Shown in pieces: positions 1 through 24,305 of a stretch of 32,000 nt of DNA. How positions within the stretch are numbered: position 1 is the stretch's first letter; every line of letters begins with the position of its first letter. The position numbers and the translations under genes were made by a program. Under the pieces are notes generated by a model, which worked only from the letters and a program-made list of their open reading frames with translations, was not told the origin of the DNA and did no database searches. The DNA is from Candidatus Saccharimonadota bacterium. Lineage in GTDB: Bacteria; Patescibacteriota; Saccharimonadia; Saccharimonadales; Saccharimonadaceae. Where the stretch lies: the NCBI GenBank assembly GCA_016700015.1, contig CP064995.1, positions 30,001 to 62,000 on the forward strand, written 5' to 3'.

Positions 1-90
1 GTGACGGATGGCGGTGCTGACTACCGACTGGTGTTTGATACTGAGCGGCTGACGTGGACGCTTGTTATGGAGGCGGATCATGGCAATTAA
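1..90 (+). CDS. 3' end of an unidentified CDS entering from upstream (partial)
   Basis: Frame 1 is open from base 1 to TAA at 88-90 (VTDGGADYRLVFDTERLTWTLVMEADHGN*). No motif recognised. Absent from the ORF track because its start lies outside the window. Confidence 0.3.
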   Translation: MTDGGADYRLVFDTERLTWTLVMEADHGN

Positions 91-163
91 TCCTTTCTTT
101 TCTTTATTCTTGAAAAGAAACAAAAGAAACGACATCCTTTTGTGCGACAAAAGGATGCAAAAA
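89..163. repeat. Left arm of an imperfect inverted repeat bounding the 89-660 element
   Basis: AATCCTTTCTTTTCTTTATTC...AAACGACATCCTTTTG-TGCGA-CAAAAGGATGCAAAA visibly matches the reverse complement of 595-660 (AATCTCCTTCTTTTTATTTCG...AAACGACTCCTTTTG-AAG-CAAAAGGAGCAAAA), with several indels. The arm contains its own hairpins at 94-102/112-120 and 133-142/148-157. Confidence 0.7.
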
Positions 164-594
164 CATGGGGGTAGGCTTCGGTCCGCGGTGAGTTTCGCGC
201 TCAAAGTATCCGGTTGCCTGCGGAACTCGCGCCAACAGACGCCACTGTTGGGCTCAAACAGTCCTCGGCAAGCCGTATACTTTTCCCACTCTACTCCCGG
301 GGCCTGCAGATTACCCCCATACCCCCAGCCATATGTGCGGCTTTGCCGCAATCATATCATGAACCATGCGGTGCATGGTTCATGTGGGTCCAGGGAGCCA
401 GCTGGCCCAAGAATGAAATCAGCAAGCTCATGGAATCATTCACGAAACTTTGTCCGCAACCAACAATATCGACATTGTTGCGGACCGATCCCTTCAGGGT
501 CGTTGTTTCGTGACTATGAGCTTGCCGATTTCATACATGGCGCCAGGCGGATATCCTTGGTCGTGTTTGCTTCTTTGCTCGAAACAAAGAAGAG

Positions 595-660
595 TTTTGC
601 TCCTTTTGCTTCAAAAGGAGTCGTTTTTTGCTTCTTTAGCGAAATAAAAAGAAGGAGATT
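595..660. repeat. Right arm of the inverted repeat; it includes the Shine-Dalgarno of the downstream polymerase gene
   Basis: Reverse complement aligns to 89-163 (see left arm). Contains hairpin 600-607/613-620 and GAAGGAG at 651-657. Confidence 0.7.
600..637 (+). terminator. Rho-independent terminator-like hairpin just upstream of the polymerase gene
   Basis: CTCCTTTT-GCTTC-AAAAGGAG followed by TCGTTTTTTGCTTCTTT. Confidence 0.5.
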
Positions 661-5831: not shown

Positions 5832-7457
5832 ATGGCGGAAAACCGCGTACGATCAGTCGTCGCTAAGGCAAACCAGAAGCTATCCATTCAGTGGGCGGCT
5901 TTGCTGTTATCGGCTAGTACACTGATTTCGTCACTGCTTGGTATCTACCGTGACCGTTTACTTAATGGACTTTACCTCGACAGCTATCCAGTCGGGATCG
6001 ATGCCTATACTGTCGCATTCACCATACCTGACTTTATGTTTTTCATTTTGGTATCGGGTGCACTCAGTGTGACGTTTATCCCAGTGTTCAATCAGCGGCT
6101 CGGTACAGGAAATCGCAAATCAGCCTGGGAGCTTAGTTCGAGTCTGATCAATTTTATGGCACTTGTAACTTTAATTGCGAGTATATTGATCATTATTTTT
6201 GCCGAACCACTTGTTCGATATGTAGTTGGACCAGGACTCGACGAAAGTGGTCGTGGCTTAGCGGTCAGTATGATGCGTATTATTGCTGTCAACCCATTCT
6301 TGTTCGCAGTGGCGACGGTGATTGCAAGTATGCAGCAGGCTGTTGGGCGGTTTACATTTTATGCACTCGCGCCAACGATCTATAACATAGGTATCATTAT
6401 CGGTGCCCAGTTCTTCACTGAGGGCATTAACATGTTTGGCTGGCAGGTATTTGACGGCGGTATTATGGGTGTCGCACTGGGAGTAGTATTAGGATCAGTT
6501 ATGCAGCTAGTTGTTAGCTCGATTGGGTTGATAGGGCTTGGGTTTGACTATGAGATGAAAATCAAATGGAAAAACCAAGGTTTCCGACAAGTATTACGGC
6601 TACTGCCGGCACGTTCACTGGATCAGGGGATTGATTATGTGAATGGATTGGTAGAAACAAACCTCGCTTCCCATATGGCAGATGGTACCATTCGTGCCTA
6701 CCAGCAAGCGCTTTCGCTGAGTCTTATGCCGGTGAGTTTAATCGGAGTAGCAATCAGTAATGCCGCCTTTCCGCGCATGACTGAGCGACTAGGGCAGGGG
6801 CGACCCGATCTCTTTCGTCGTGAGCTACTATCGATACTACGCTGGATTGTTTGGCTAACGCTGCCCGTTGTTACCATAACTTTCTTTGCGCGCGGATTTA
6901 TTGTCAGTTTCATTAAGAATGGAGGCAATGCACTTATTGCGGGATTGCTTGGAGCACTCGTATTGTCCATACTGTTTCGCACGATATATCATATTGCGGC
7001 GCGCGCATTTTATGCTCAGCAAGACACGCGCACCCCACTATACGTGTCAATTTTCTCCATCGCTCTTAATATTGGACTTGCTGTCACCTTCACGAGCGTA
7101 CTCGGCTGGGGAGTAAACGGGTTAGCATGGGCACAGTCACTGGTGGCATTGGTGGAAGTTCTGATTTTGTGTAGTATATTAGCCGTACGGATCCCTAAGT
7201 TATTTCACCGGAAGTTTTGGCACGCGATTATGCGCATGATAGCAGCAAGCGCACTGATGGCGCTTATCACATATGGTAGCGTGCTACTGTTCCAGCTACA
7301 GAGCAGCGATATGACATTCTTCTCGACATTTCCAAAGTTCGGTGTGATCGTTGCCGTCAGTTTCGCGACGTATGTAGGATTGTCGAAGCTCTTTCACCTC
7401 ACTGAGGCCGATCCGGTGATTCGGCGCGTAAATGCACTACTATTCGGGAAGAAATAA
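5832..7457 (+). CDS. murJ: Lipid II flippase MurJ (MviN family)
   Basis: Polytopic membrane protein. N-terminal LSASTLISSLLGIYRDRLL, FTIPDFMFFILVSGALSVTFIPVF and ALSLSLMPVSLIGVAISNAAFPRM are typical MurJ blocks. Start chosen at ATG 5832, after the ftsH stop. Confidence 0.9.
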   Translation: MAENRVRSVVAKANQKLSIQWAALLLSASTLISSLLGIYRDRLLNGLYLDSYPVGIDAYTVAFTIPDFMFFILVSGALSVTFIPVFNQRLGTGNRKSAWELSSSLINFMALVTLIASILIIIFAEPLVRYVVGPGLDESGRGLAVSMMRIIAVNPFLFAVATVIASMQQAVGRFTFYALAPTIYNIGIIIGAQFFTEGINMFGWQVFDGGIMGVALGVVLGSVMQLVVSSIGLIGLGFDYEMKIKWKNQGFRQVLRLLPARSLDQGIDYVNGLVETNLASHMADGTIRAYQQALSLSLMPVSLIGVAISNAAFPRMTERLGQGRPDLFRRELLSILRWIVWLTLPVVTITFFARGFIVSFIKNGGNALIAGLLGALVLSILFRTIYHIAARAFYAQQDTRTPLYVSIFSIALNIGLAVTFTSVLGWGVNGLAWAQSLVALVEVLILCSILAVRIPKLFHRKFWHAIMRMIAASALMALITYGSVLLFQLQSSDMTFFSTFPKFGVIVAVSFATYVGLSKLFHLTEADPVIRRVNALLFGKK

Positions 7458-7458
7458 T

Positions 7459-9246
7459 ATGAGTGAGTTCATCAGAAATTTTTGTATTATTGCTCATATC
7501 GACCACGGTAAAAGTACGCTCGCCGATAGGATGATGGAAATTACGCACACGGTAGAAAAACGCGACATGAAAAGTCAATTGCTTGATAGCATGGAACTAG
7601 AGCGCGAAAAGGGAATTACCATTAAGCTCGCGCCGGTACGTATGCAGTGGCAGGGTTACGACCTCAACCTGATTGACACGCCGGGGCATGTGGACTTCAG
7701 CTACGAAGTGTCACGCAGCCTGCAGGCATGCGAGGGTGCAGTGCTGGTAGTTGATGCGAGTCAAGGTATTCAAGCGCAGACATTAGCTAATGTATACTTG
7801 GCACTTGAGCAAGATCTTGTCATCATTCCGGTGCTCAATAAAGTTGATTTACCGGCTGCCGATGTAGAGCGAGTGAGTAAGGAAGTGATTAATCTGCTTG
7901 GTTGCCACCAAGACGATATCATTAAAATTTCGGCCAAGACCGGCCAGGGAGTCGAAGCGGTGCTTGCGGCGATTGTCGAACAAGTTACCCCGCCTAAAGG
8001 TGATACATCGGCACCAACGAGAGCACTGATTTTTGACAGTTACTACGACGACTACCGCGGGGTCATACTGTATGTTCGTGTCGTGGATGGTGCGATTAAA
8101 AAAGGCCAGCGCATTGATATGTTGGCAACAGGTGCGCACGGCATCGCGCTGGAAGTCGGGCACCTTAGCCCCAGTATGCAGCCCGATCCTGAGATTGCGA
8201 CAGGCGAGATTGGTTATATCGTGACTAACCTCAAAACAACGCGCGATGCGCGAGTTGGTGATACAGTGATGATTAAATCAGTCGCCGCCGTCCATACAAC
8301 CATTGTAGCACTGCCCGGCTATAAGCATGTGCAGCCGTTTGTGTATGCTGGGTTCTTCCCTGTCAGCAACGAGGATTACAATGAGCTTAAAGAAGCAATC
8401 GAAAAGTTAGCACTGAGTGATAGTGCGCTTCAGTTCGAACCAGAGAATTCACCAGTGTTAGGGTTTGGGGTGCGGATTGGGTTTTTGGGCCTACTCCATA
8501 TGGACATTGTGCGCGAGCGACTGGAGCGTGAATATAATCTCGACTTAGTCGTGACTAACCCAAGTACCGACTACCAAGTAACGATGACAAACGGCGAAGA
8601 GTTAGACATCAAAAGCGCTTCGAGCCTACCTGATCGCGCTCAGATTGCCGAAATTCGCGAGCCGTGGATTCGCGGCGAAATTGTGGTACCGCAGGAGTAT
8701 GTCGGTGCGGTCATCCAGCTGATTGTTGGCAAACGAGGGCGGCAGAAAAACCTTAGTTATATTGATGAGCGGGCACTCGTGAGCTTTGAAGCGCCACTGG
8801 CAAATTTGCTGACTGACTTCTACGATCAGCTCAAAAGTGTTACCAGTGGCTACGGTAGCTTTAACTATGAACTCGATGATTATCGCGCTGAAGATCTAGT
8901 GCGTGTCGACTTTTATGTTGGTGGCGAGATGGTTGATGCGCTCAGTGTGATGTGCCACCGCAGTGAGTCGATGGCACTGGGTCGTGAGGTCACTACAAAA
9001 CTCAAGGAAGTGGTGCCGCGCCAGAGCTTTGAAGTGGCGCTGCAGGCAGCCATTGGCGGCAAATTTATCGCCCGTGAAACCATTGGCGCCTACCGTAAAG
9101 ACGTGACGGGCTATCTGTATGGCGGTGACGTTAGCCGCAAGAAGAAACTCCTCGCGAAGCAGGCAAAAGGCAAAAAACGCATGAAAAGGTTTGGCAAAGT
9201 CGACATACCTTCAGAGGCCTTTACCGTTATGCTCAAACGTGACTAA
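7459..9246 (+). CDS. lepA: Translation elongation factor 4 (LepA)
   Basis: IRNFCIIAHIDHGKSTLADR G1 motif, DTPGHVDF, NKVD, and the characteristic C-terminal GKKRMKRFGKVDIPSEAF. Confidence 0.97.
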   Translation: MSEFIRNFCIIAHIDHGKSTLADRMMEITHTVEKRDMKSQLLDSMELEREKGITIKLAPVRMQWQGYDLNLIDTPGHVDFSYEVSRSLQACEGAVLVVDASQGIQAQTLANVYLALEQDLVIIPVLNKVDLPAADVERVSKEVINLLGCHQDDIIKISAKTGQGVEAVLAAIVEQVTPPKGDTSAPTRALIFDSYYDDYRGVILYVRVVDGAIKKGQRIDMLATGAHGIALEVGHLSPSMQPDPEIATGEIGYIVTNLKTTRDARVGDTVMIKSVAAVHTTIVALPGYKHVQPFVYAGFFPVSNEDYNELKEAIEKLALSDSALQFEPENSPVLGFGVRIGFLGLLHMDIVRERLEREYNLDLVVTNPSTDYQVTMTNGEELDIKSASSLPDRAQIAEIREPWIRGEIVVPQEYVGAVIQLIVGKRGRQKNLSYIDERALVSFEAPLANLLTDFYDQLKSVTSGYGSFNYELDDYRAEDLVRVDFYVGGEMVDALSVMCHRSESMALGREVTTKLKEVVPRQSFEVALQAAIGGKFIARETIGAYRKDVTGYLYGGDVSRKKKLLAKQAKGKKRMKRFGKVDIPSEAFTVMLKRD

Positions 9247-10229: not shown

Positions 10230-10943
10230 ATGATAACCGAACGCCAGCGTGCGATTTTGGGTGCGATTATCGAGCAATACGCCGAAATCGCCGTACCGGT
10301 AGGCAGTGTGACACTGGCCAAGCTTTTTGGTGTTAGTAGCGCGACGATTCGTAGCGAGATGGCAAGGCTTGAAGAGGTTGGACTTATTACTGCGCCCCAC
10401 ACTAGTGCTGGCCGTGTGCCGACTGACAAGGGCTATCGACTATATGTCAACGGCATCACAGACGCGCAAATGACGGAACTGCCAAGCGGTATGGATCGCA
10501 GCGCGAGGGCGATTGAAGCGCATGTCAATGCACAGAGCTCTCATGCTGATCGAGCTATACGTAGCGCAGTCGATAGCCTAGTAGAATTGACCGGTAACCT
10601 AGGGTTTGCAACAATCGGTGCGCAGCTCTATATGAACGGTATGGGTAACTTGTTTAGCCAGCCAGAATTTACCGAAGGACGGCACGTACAAGCGGTAGCT
10701 CGACTGCTCGACAATATCGAGCCTTGGCTACGCGAGGCTGCTCCGAACCAGCCGCTCAACGTGTTTATTGGTAGCGAAAACCCAATTGGTAAAAGTAGTG
10801 GCGCCACGCTCATTATCAGTAAATTTCGCTCACCTTACAGCGACAAAAGCTATATTGGCGTGATTGGACCTACTAGGCAAAATTACGCTCGCACGATGAC
10901 ACTCGTCAAACGAACAGGTGCGATGTTAGAGGATGTGTTGTAG
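10230..10943 (+). CDS. hrcA: Heat-inducible transcription repressor HrcA (short form, 237 aa)
   Basis: N-terminal wHTH: MITERQRAILGAIIEQYAEIAVPVGSVTLAKLFGVSSATIRSEMARLEEVGLITAPHTSAGRVPTDKGYRLYV. C-terminal IGVIGPTRQNYARTM block. CIRCE lies upstream. The track ORF from 10086 is an over-extension. Confidence 0.9.
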   Translation: MITERQRAILGAIIEQYAEIAVPVGSVTLAKLFGVSSATIRSEMARLEEVGLITAPHTSAGRVPTDKGYRLYVNGITDAQMTELPSGMDRSARAIEAHVNAQSSHADRAIRSAVDSLVELTGNLGFATIGAQLYMNGMGNLFSQPEFTEGRHVQAVARLLDNIEPWLREAAPNQPLNVFIGSENPIGKSSGATLIISKFRSPYSDKSYIGVIGPTRQNYARTMTLVKRTGAMLEDVL

Positions 10944-10956
10944 AGAGGAGTTGAAA

Positions 10957-11415
10957 ATGAGTGTAAAAAAGACTAAACAAGACGAACATATAGCCGAATT
11001 AACCGCTGATCTTCAGCGACTTCGAGCCGACTTCGAGAATTACCGTAAGCGAGTAGATCAGGAAAAAGCTTCCGCGCAGAGCACGGGTGAAGCACGAATG
11101 ATTATAAAACTATTACCTATTGTTGATACGATCGAACGGGCAATCAGCCACACCCCGGCTGAACTTGCCGACAACCCCTGGGTACAAGGGATTGCCGCGT
11201 TGACCAAAAGTCTTGATACGGCACTCGGTGGCATGAATGTATTACGGATAGATGCTAGGCCGGGTACTGTTTTTGATCCCGATGTCCATCACGCAGTACA
11301 GTTCGACGAGGATGCAGAAGGTGATGTAGAAGTGATTGCTGAAGAACTTCAGGCTGGCTATATACTAAATGGTTCGCCGGTGCGTGAAGCAATGGTGAAA
11401 GTAACGCGCAAGTAA
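10957..11415 (+). CDS. grpE: Nucleotide exchange factor GrpE
   Basis: LQRLRADFENYRKRVDQEK motif, C-terminal beta domain (GTVFDPDVHHAV, GYILNGSPVREAMVKV). SD GAGAGGAG lies upstream. Confidence 0.92.
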   Translation: MSVKKTKQDEHIAELTADLQRLRADFENYRKRVDQEKASAQSTGEARMIIKLLPIVDTIERAISHTPAELADNPWVQGIAALTKSLDTALGGMNVLRIDARPGTVFDPDVHHAVQFDEDAEGDVEVIAEELQAGYILNGSPVREAMVKVTRK

Positions 11416-24189: not shown

Positions 24190-24231
24190 CCAAGTAAAAC
24201 GTCCATCTGAAAGGATGGACGTTTTACTTGG
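24190..24231. terminator. Bidirectional terminator hairpin between the membrane-protein gene and tRNA-Lys
   Basis: 18-bp perfect stem CCAAGTAAAACGTCCATC / GATGGACGTTTTACTTGG with a 6-nt loop. T-runs are present on both strands. Confidence 0.75.
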
Positions 24232-24305
24232 AGGGCCCACCGAGGCTTGAACTCGGGACACCCTGCTTAAAAGGCAGGTGCTCTAACCGGCTGAGCTATG
24301 GGCCC
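24229..24305 (-). tRNA. tRNA-Lys (anticodon UUU), CCA encoded
   Basis: Reverse complement: GGGCCCA TA GCTC AGCCGGTTA GAGC A CCTGC CTTTTAA GCAGG GTGTC CCGAG TTCAAGC CTCGG TGGGCCC T CCA. It forms a full cloverleaf with a 7-bp acceptor stem. 77 nt. Confidence 0.95.

Follow-up and report, generated by a model that had tools for sequence, protein, structure and literature searches.

A putative mobile, protein-free cassette with a conserved structured RNA core beside a DinB-type polymerase gene in Saccharibacteria

We found a conserved structured core of ~175 nt, bracketed by arrays of terminator-like hairpins, in a non-coding region of a Saccharibacteria (Saccharimonadia, CPR) genome. The region spans positions 89-660 of the window, the 32-kb stretch of DNA that was analyzed. 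It lies between a small conserved gene, denoted gene A, and the gene encoding a DinB-type DNA polymerase. With about even confidence, we interpret the region as a horizontally mobile, terminator-bounded, protein-free cassette that carries the gene for a new trans-acting structured RNA. The cassette would have been inserted between gene A and the polymerase gene, two genes that are normally translationally coupled. The core RNA family is absent from Rfam, from the phage and plasmid sequences that were searched and from the literature that was consulted, and we would class it as a new structured ncRNA family of bacteria.

Anatomy of the region between gene A and the polymerase gene

Gene A encodes 88 aa on the full contig and has no Pfam match. 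The region begins at its TAA stop and ends just upstream of the GTG start codon of the polymerase gene at 664. It had been described from the letters of the DNA as the longest non-coding gap of the window, with inverted repeats at its ends and nested helices inside, and this description held. No longer gap between long ORFs occurs in the ORF list of the window, the region does not code for protein and is bounded by true inverted repeats, and all helices named earlier were recovered in its sequence. Three further metagenome contigs carry identical copies of the region, and the relatives of the polymerase in the genome collection were almost all from Candidatus Saccharibacteria MAGs. By comparing the region with a related element in another contig (L005) and with other homologues, we divided it into five parts: the left arm (89-163), domain 1 (164-321), small hairpins (331-384), the rod and junction (387-563) and the right arm (566-660). 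The features are as follows.

1-90, + strand: 3' end of gene A, the small conserved upstream gene, with the TAA stop at 88-90
89-163, - strand: left arm, with two hairpin units (~91-132 and 133-157); inverted repeat of 595-660
164-321, no strand assigned: domain 1, an imperfect palindrome of 156 nt with ATGGGGGTA/TACCCCCAT as closing pair
331-357 and 358-384, + strand: two adjacent hairpins immediately 5' of the rod
387-563, + strand: core structured RNA, a ~175-nt rod (~60 pairs) capped by a three-way junction
390-396/554-560, ~413-433/514-534 and 441-448/505-512, + strand: basal helix, long helix and 8-bp last helix of the core
434-440, + strand: 7-nt asymmetric loop between the long helix and 441-448/505-512
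452-485 and 486-502, + strand: hairpins A (variable) and B within the three-way junction
566-660, + strand: right arm, with three tandem forward units (566-595, 596-626 and 627-660)
664-1947, + strand: intact Y-family (DinB-type) DNA polymerase gene (PF00817, PF11799)

The recovered helices include 165-188/297-320, 407-431/516-540 (25 nt, 88% complementary), 440-448/505-513 and 452-460/477-485 (both perfect), 358-369/373-384 (perfect, 12 bp) and 600-608/612-620. The folding free energy was far below that of shuffled sequences, with z = -10.4 for the + strand and z = -13.1 for the - strand.

The terminal inverted repeats are 66-75 nt long, and a corresponding pair of arms is also present in L005. 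Alignment of 89-163 with the reverse complement of 595-660 gave a local score of 31, compared with 8.0 +/- 1.6 (maximum 16) for 1000 shuffles and 13 for the same pair in direct orientation. The earlier picture of the arms nevertheless required refinement, as they are arrays of oriented units. Each unit is ~30-40 nt long and consists of TTTGC, an A/T-rich hairpin and TCGTTT with a U-rich tail. Three units point rightward (starting at 566, 596 and 627, with a spacing of 30-31 nt) and two point leftward. Clusters of intrinsic terminators and REP-BIME arrays are similar in that tandem A/T-rich hairpins with U-tracts lie between operon genes in both orientations. Unlike in such clusters and arrays, the units here are confined to the 89-660 element within the 32-kb window, where they bracket a conserved structured core.

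The right-arm units are probable terminators of the core RNA, judging from their hairpins and U-tracts. A + strand terminator-like hairpin had been noted in the right arm, and we located it at 599-621, followed by a T6 run, with a second site at 570-592. On the - strand, a terminator-like site runs from 158 to 132, and the left-arm unit 133-157 was scored as an intrinsic terminator of that strand. The intrinsic-terminator consensus is matched, at the level of consensus only, by 599-621 followed by TCGTTTTTT (+ strand) and by 158..132 followed by CGTTTCTTTT (- strand). In total, 6 terminator-like sites were found in 1-1000, where 1.0 was expected, and they face outward on both sides. The outer arms, as outward-facing hairpin-terminator units, would stop transcription leaving the cassette in either direction. 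The last right-arm unit also supplies the SD of the polymerase gene (GAAGGAG, 651-657).

Domain 1 appears to be weakly constrained. Its MFE is -68.9 for the plus strand, compared with -73.5 for the minus strand. It is missing from L005, nhmmer found no homologue of it in any collected locus, and in L041 it differs by an 84-nt indel and 4 substitutions although the core of L041 is identical to that of the window. Because of this absence, lack of homologues and indel, we regard domain 1 as an extra, probably weakly constrained insert that lies outside any single large RNA. We also considered whether domain 1 derives from a reversed copy of the core RNA that has since diverged and rejected this, since neither covariance model matches it and the nhmmer search was negative. 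At the position equivalent to the two small hairpins (331-384), L005 has hairpins of different sequence.

Structure, strand and conservation of the core RNA

An RNA-like structure had been proposed inside the region, and a conserved structure of this kind was confirmed for the core at 387-563. The rod and junction are present in four other Saccharimonadia contigs (L005, L020, L021 and L022), and all five sequences share one fold. The largest internal loop of the rod is 7 x 1-2 nt. In the junction, the 29-nt block at 480-508 is the same in the window and L005 except for one loop base. This block recurs in L020, L021 and L022, which were recovered by scanning metagenomes for a pattern of 20 specified bases from the block common to the window and L005 (GGACCGATCCCNNNNGGGTCGTTG). 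The scan returned these three real homologues and two chance matches inside genes. Hairpin A varies and hairpin B is identical in all five sequences, an invariance that is partly built in by the search because three of the cores were recovered with the conserved-block pattern. One or more TTTGC-hairpin units come after the core in all five sequences. L020, L021 and L022 each have one similar unit after the rod, which may not terminate transcription there because no U-tract lies behind the A/T hairpin. What is common to all homologues is 387-563 and the following hairpin unit, ~200 nt in total.

Covariation, which had been named as a check on the earlier ncRNA reading, was observed in the core helices. 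Between the window and L005, 22 out of 44 pairs differ; 15 of them have changed on both sides with the pairing kept, and 3 are broken. In the alignment of the five sequences, representing the four distinct cores known, 95.1% of the cells were paired, compared with 31-42% when the partners were slid, and 26 of the 44 pairs change on both sides; these counts are biased towards the structure because the alignment was fitted to the model. None of 500 shuffles reached the observed values. Because the rod covaries freely while the sequence of the junction is invariant, we infer that the RNA may act in trans; the junction would be bound by a protein or a second RNA, and the rod would serve as a scaffold. 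A tertiary pairing between the 7-nt loop and the loop of hairpin A was also considered; it is possible in L021 and L022 (GUAGAG/CUCUAC) and, by eye, is not conserved in the window, L005 and L020, and was rejected.

Several lines of evidence point to the core RNA being read from the + strand of the window. In L005 and L020-L022, the strand equivalent to the plus strand of the window has the lower MFE, by 15-27 kcal/mol; the strands of the window alone fold almost equally (-89.1 vs -86.0 kcal/mol). Model R2 gave 115-141 bits on the forward strand and no match on the reverse strand at E <= 5. Hairpin B contains a U.G wobble in five of five sequences, with the bases preset by the search pattern for three of them. 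L021 and L022 have only two differences over ~200 nt, and both are A-U <-> G-U exchanges on the window-plus-equivalent strand. Single-strand DNA transposases likewise use strand-specific hairpins with G.T pairs, and the strand bias is thus not strict proof of an RNA. Transcription of the + strand would start at ~322-390 and stop at the tandem hairpin/U-tract terminators at 570-630. No sigma-70-like promoter was found in 1-1000, and the 5' end of the RNA, like its transcription, is putative.

The coding alternative was ruled out. A 202-aa ORF that had been put forward as a possible coding region has no Pfam match, and translated similarity among the five elements was present in all six frames with none favoured. 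Similarity in every frame and on both strands indicates conservation of the nucleotide sequence rather than of a protein.

We then compared the region with known RNA families. At the gathering score, Rfam returned a single match in the whole window, a tRNA at 24232-24305, and at E <= 10 nothing in 1-800 went past chance-level, mostly low-complexity matches. In L005, L020-L022 and L041, only tRNAs and chance low-complexity matches were found (gathering and E-value thresholds; E <= 1 for one set). The sequence-only reading had seen no hallmarks of RNase P, tmRNA, SRP or 6S RNA, and the Rfam covariance models agreed; they likewise gave no match to ROOL, OLE, GOLLD, HEARO or raiA. ARAGORN detected no tmRNA. 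Viral contigs scanned with three patterns gave no match, and blastn gave no match to phages and only low-complexity matches to the arm, in Bacillus, among plasmids. The literature on ncRNAs of Saccharibacteria and CPR bacteria yielded nothing relevant. TIGR arrays, retron msr/msd, group II introns, the SRP S-domain and tRNA-like structures were also considered and rejected, as the partner gene or the defining motifs are absent.

The core resembles 4.5S/SRP RNA and 6S RNA in its long, freely covarying helix, its short block of conserved sequence and its organization as a free-standing gene followed by a terminator. In contrast to SRP RNA, it has no match to the covariance model and lacks the domain IV motifs and the GNRA tetraloop. 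6S RNA is a ~180-nt rod with a large central bubble that mimics an open promoter, whereas here the bubble is absent and the apex is a three-way junction. Unlike these housekeeping RNAs, the element is sporadic in occurrence and variable in location.

Insertion, orientation and location of the element among Saccharimonadia

The cassette appears to move horizontally among Saccharimonadia, as suggested by its presence or absence at one locus in close relatives, its reversal in one lineage and the occurrence of the RNA at unrelated loci. At the gene A/polymerase junction, relatives with 76-81% polymerase identity (L025, L029, L031 and L032) have no insert, and the end of gene A overlaps or directly adjoins the start of the polymerase gene. 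This arrangement is shared by most of the more distant relatives (L006, L008-L010, L012 and L014-L018). Element-free junctions that have no spacer typically show an ATGA- or GTGA-type overlap, and L007, L011 and L013 have short unrelated spacers of ~40-70 nt. At this locus, the element was present in only two lineages, the window lineage, represented by seven contigs (L001, L003, L004, L024 and L041-L043), and the lineage of L005 and L030. The polymerase of L005 is 77% identical to that of the window. In an NJ tree of the polymerases, the two lineages each group with element-free genomes and are not sisters. The FtsH of L005 is 81.3% identical to that of the window, compared with 83.3% for L025 and 83.0% for L029, and by this measure, too, L005 is not nearest to the window.

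The L005 element is ~410 nt long and is flipped end to end, including the outer arms. Window positions 323-653 match L005 positions 3933-3596 on the opposite strand, and the three-unit arm adjoins gene A in L005. In L005, the end of the element next to the polymerase gene matches, at 97% identity, the reverse complement of the outermost 32 nt of the left arm of the window (92-123). Because the outermost arm sequence is flipped too, a crossover inside the inverted repeats is not the explanation of the flip. This leaves two explanations: the element may have been inserted independently at almost the same junction, or the whole segment may have been inverted after spreading laterally.

The core RNA also occurs away from the polymerase, with other neighbours in L020, L021 and L022. 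In L021 it lies after frr, in an frr/rseP neighbourhood, and in L022 it is flanked by a small membrane-protein gene and by topA. The topA locus is without the RNA in relatives with TopA identities of 88, 80 and 78%, and comparison of L022 with L035, from the same sample, revealed a ~457-nt insertion in L022. L021 and L022 share a stretch of ~380 nt, in which the rod and junction are nearly identical and the leader and tail, which include a covarying GNRA hairpin and a U-tract, are ~75% identical. In L020-L022, the core is present without inverted arms. We detected no second copy in ~42 kb of the source genome or in ~257 kb of related Saccharimonadia DNA, and a protein-database search with a spurious 196-aa ORF returned only copies at the same locus. 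As no further copies were found in the scanned DNA, the element appears to occur sporadically, at variable locations and once per genome, which is not the pattern of a multicopy repeat.

We also compared the window with the related contig L041. The two share ~87% nucleotide identity over 9 kb, with a tract of 95-100% identity between about -80 and +1600. Within this tract, not one substitution falls in 315-746, a segment that comprises the core RNA, the right arm and the initial 80 nt of the polymerase gene. The rest of the polymerase gene differs by 2-5%, and the left arm and domain 1 together show 5 substitutions and the indel. Such a pattern may result from purifying selection acting on the core, from very recent recombination over a tract with the element in it, or from the two together.

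The insertion would cut the polymerase gene off from the operon promoter and from translational coupling, with terminators in between whichever way the element faces. Its expression may rely on read-through and on the SD-like purine tract at the arm tip, which is GAAGGAG in the window and AAAGG in L005, and this would likely be a side effect of the insertion.

Alternative explanations and implications

The main rival of an RNA-gene cassette is a fold-back DNA transposon, which we regard as possible but on balance unlikely. The region would then be a MITE-like, fold-back or REPIN/PATE-like element moved by a transposase encoded elsewhere, its nested palindromes would be recognition structures in single-stranded or duplex DNA, and any RNA would be incidental. 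A MITE had been named as an alternative in the sequence-only reading, and part of that suggestion stands: the region has long inverted ends, has no coding capacity, and is present or absent at one locus among relatives. Its occurrence in both orientations at almost the same junction in non-sister lineages, the presence of the RNA-bearing segment at different loci in related genomes and the makeup of the whole region as a chain of palindromes are also in line with transposition. In addition, loose direct repeats lie near the junctions. Those of the window are gapped (CAATTA-ATCC at 84-93 vs CAATTATAATCC at 678-689) and do not abut the right repeat tip, and those of L005 (ATGAGGCCTAAGCG vs ATGAGGATAGCG) differ from them.

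However, the part of the MITE suggestion that concerned duplications and dispersed copies found no clear support. No clean target-site duplication was seen at the repeat tips, with ambiguous reconstructions from empty sites, and neither the scan of the ~42 kb and ~257 kb of DNA nor the spurious-ORF protein search revealed a copy at a second site. The cores of L020-L022 have no inverted arms, conservation is strongest at the internal junction and not at the termini, and no transposase is encoded in the flanks.

Comparison with known MITEs leads to a similarly mixed picture. Like the Correia elements of Neisseria and the enterobacterial ERIC elements, the element is short, protein-free and intergenic, has inverted ends, is present or absent among relatives, and is likely to affect the expression of its neighbours through hairpins or terminators. 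MITEs of the Correia/ERIC type are co-transcribed, fold into long hairpins and reach copy numbers of tens to hundreds, each with a defined target duplication. They are not known to have a conserved internal junction, whereas here the three-way junction is the most conserved part and the stems covary, and the element was found in single copies only, with no clean duplication.

A more far-reaching reading, which we consider improbable, is that of an RNA-centred CPR mobile element. The rod/junction RNA would be the guide, bridge or recognition partner of a recombinase or nuclease encoded elsewhere and would repeatedly direct the protein-free cassette into one gene junction in either orientation. 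If true, the cassette would ride along, as a non-autonomous 'RNA-only' element, with an RNA-guided insertion system that has yet to be discovered. HEARO (IscB omega RNA), TnpB omega/reRNA and the IS110 bridge RNA are likewise conserved structured RNAs of 150-300 nt on mobile DNA, which can be ORF-less. In contrast to these systems, the element has no Rfam HEARO match and no IscB, TnpB or IS110 gene nearby. The known RNAs have a pseudoknotted scaffold, whereas the core described here is a long rod with a three-way junction in which no guide segment was identified.

It is highly doubtful that the region regulates the translesion polymerase in cis, as a leader or attenuator in which the RNA would sense a signal, and terminators or arm pairing over the SD would set expression. 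Three + strand terminator-like hairpins do lie directly upstream of the polymerase SD, and the whole-region MFE pairs the left arm with the right arm, including the SD tract; given that the arms are inverted repeats, they would pair whichever way the element faces. However, the core RNA lies on the strand opposite to the polymerase gene in L005 and L030, it adjoins frr/rseP and topA elsewhere, and nearly all relatives of the polymerase are without any leader. The same reversal in L005 and the same locations beside frr or topA contradict the earlier association of the element with the polymerase gene. Occlusion of the SD by pairing of the two arms had also been suggested. The predicted fold does contain this pairing, which could mask the polymerase SD in read-through RNA, and we see it as a possible side effect in such transcripts.

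We place equally little belief in an invertible (phase-variable) segment, whose arms would be recombination sites and whose flip would switch transcription into the polymerase gene. Inverted repeats do bound the segment, the two carrier lineages have opposite orientations, and the L030 contig ends inside the element. However, the orientation is uniform within each lineage, with all seven contigs of the window lineage in one orientation and both contigs of the L005 lineage (L005 and L030) in the other. The flip takes in the outermost arm sequence, no recombinase was found among the called genes within 10 kb of the element, and no promoter-like site was found. One large 'ornate' ncRNA of ~570 nt over 89-660 (ROOL/OLE/GOLLD class) had earlier been suggested by the size of the region, and its very low folding energy and nested helices would fit as well. 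This reading is barely credible given the mosaic conservation: there is no Rfam match at the gathering score and none to this class at E <= 10, only the ~200 nt of the core and hairpin unit are common to all homologues, 164-321 is dispensable, and the units of the left arm belong to the opposite strand.

The genomes of Saccharibacteria and other CPR bacteria are tiny and densely packed, and to our knowledge almost no ncRNAs have been described in them besides the universal ones. Under the interpretation of the region as a mobile cassette carrying an RNA gene, the core RNA is a concrete candidate for new CPR RNA biology because it covaries, is absent from Rfam, is identical between strains with diverged neighbours and appears to move between loci. 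The insertion splits a coupled pair, gene A and the gene for an error-prone polymerase, and seems to be tolerated, with the cassette supplying its own putative terminators and SD-like tract. Provided that it has a partner protein, the element could also lead to a new mobility or RNA-protein system.

Small genes upstream of the polymerase

We found that, in the lineage of the window, the Y-family polymerase is preceded by two small reading frames.

Window 1-90 and 9010-9427 of L001 (a contig of the same lineage): 49-aa ORF and 88-aa gene A, 5' of the Y-family polymerase

In relatives with 80-81% identity, the small ORF is 45 aa long and is also located ahead of the polymerase together with gene A, and in most of the remaining relatives gene A alone was found 5' of the polymerase. 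In genomes without the element, gene A overlaps the polymerase start. A Pfam search returned no match for the 49-aa ORF or gene A. The product of gene A may assist the polymerase as an accessory factor.

Surroundings of the operon in relatives without the element

In the 80%-identity relative represented by L025/L026, two further genes were located at a distance of 1.3-8 kb on the 5' side of the operon formed by gene A and the polymerase.

L025/L026 2257-8704: large serine recombinase (523 aa; Resolvase and Recombinase domains) and KAP NTPase

These genes suggest that an element has integrated here and that the neighbourhood is prone to recombination.

Separately, the lepA gene calls of two relatives without the element were broken in two by an inserted ORF of 163-170 aa.

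L025 16558-18837 and L029 6317-8752: lepA called as two genes (unbroken in the window, 7432-9246)

The ORF inserted in L029 lepA matches the GrpB family; in both relatives, an intein or an insertion could explain the split gene.

RNA features and mosaic identity

Rfam and ARAGORN searches of the window returned no match besides one tRNA gene.

Window 24229-24305, minus strand: tRNA-Lys (UUU)

Two contigs carrying a homologous core RNA at other loci, L021 and L022, share a motif 3' of the RNA. Ahead of this motif come a hairpin with a GNRA loop and a covarying stem (GCCC-GAGA-GGGC versus GGCU-GUAA-GCC) and a U-tract.

L021 about 1715-1760 and L022 about 11165-11195 (minus strand): GATC..TC..CTACG.TC.AGG.TGAC, downstream of the RNA

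We compared the window with L041, a contig of its own lineage. The core RNA and right arm were 100% identical despite an insertion in domain 1, the palindromic part of the element.

L041 about 10234-10317: 84-nt insertion in the domain 1 closing helix, between window positions 312 and 315

From -300 to +3000, identity between the two related genomes formed a strong mosaic, with 70-83% in gene A, a rise to 95-100% from -80 to +1600 and a drop to 81-82% over 1600-1800. Such a pattern indicates that homologous recombination is frequent among these Saccharibacteria.
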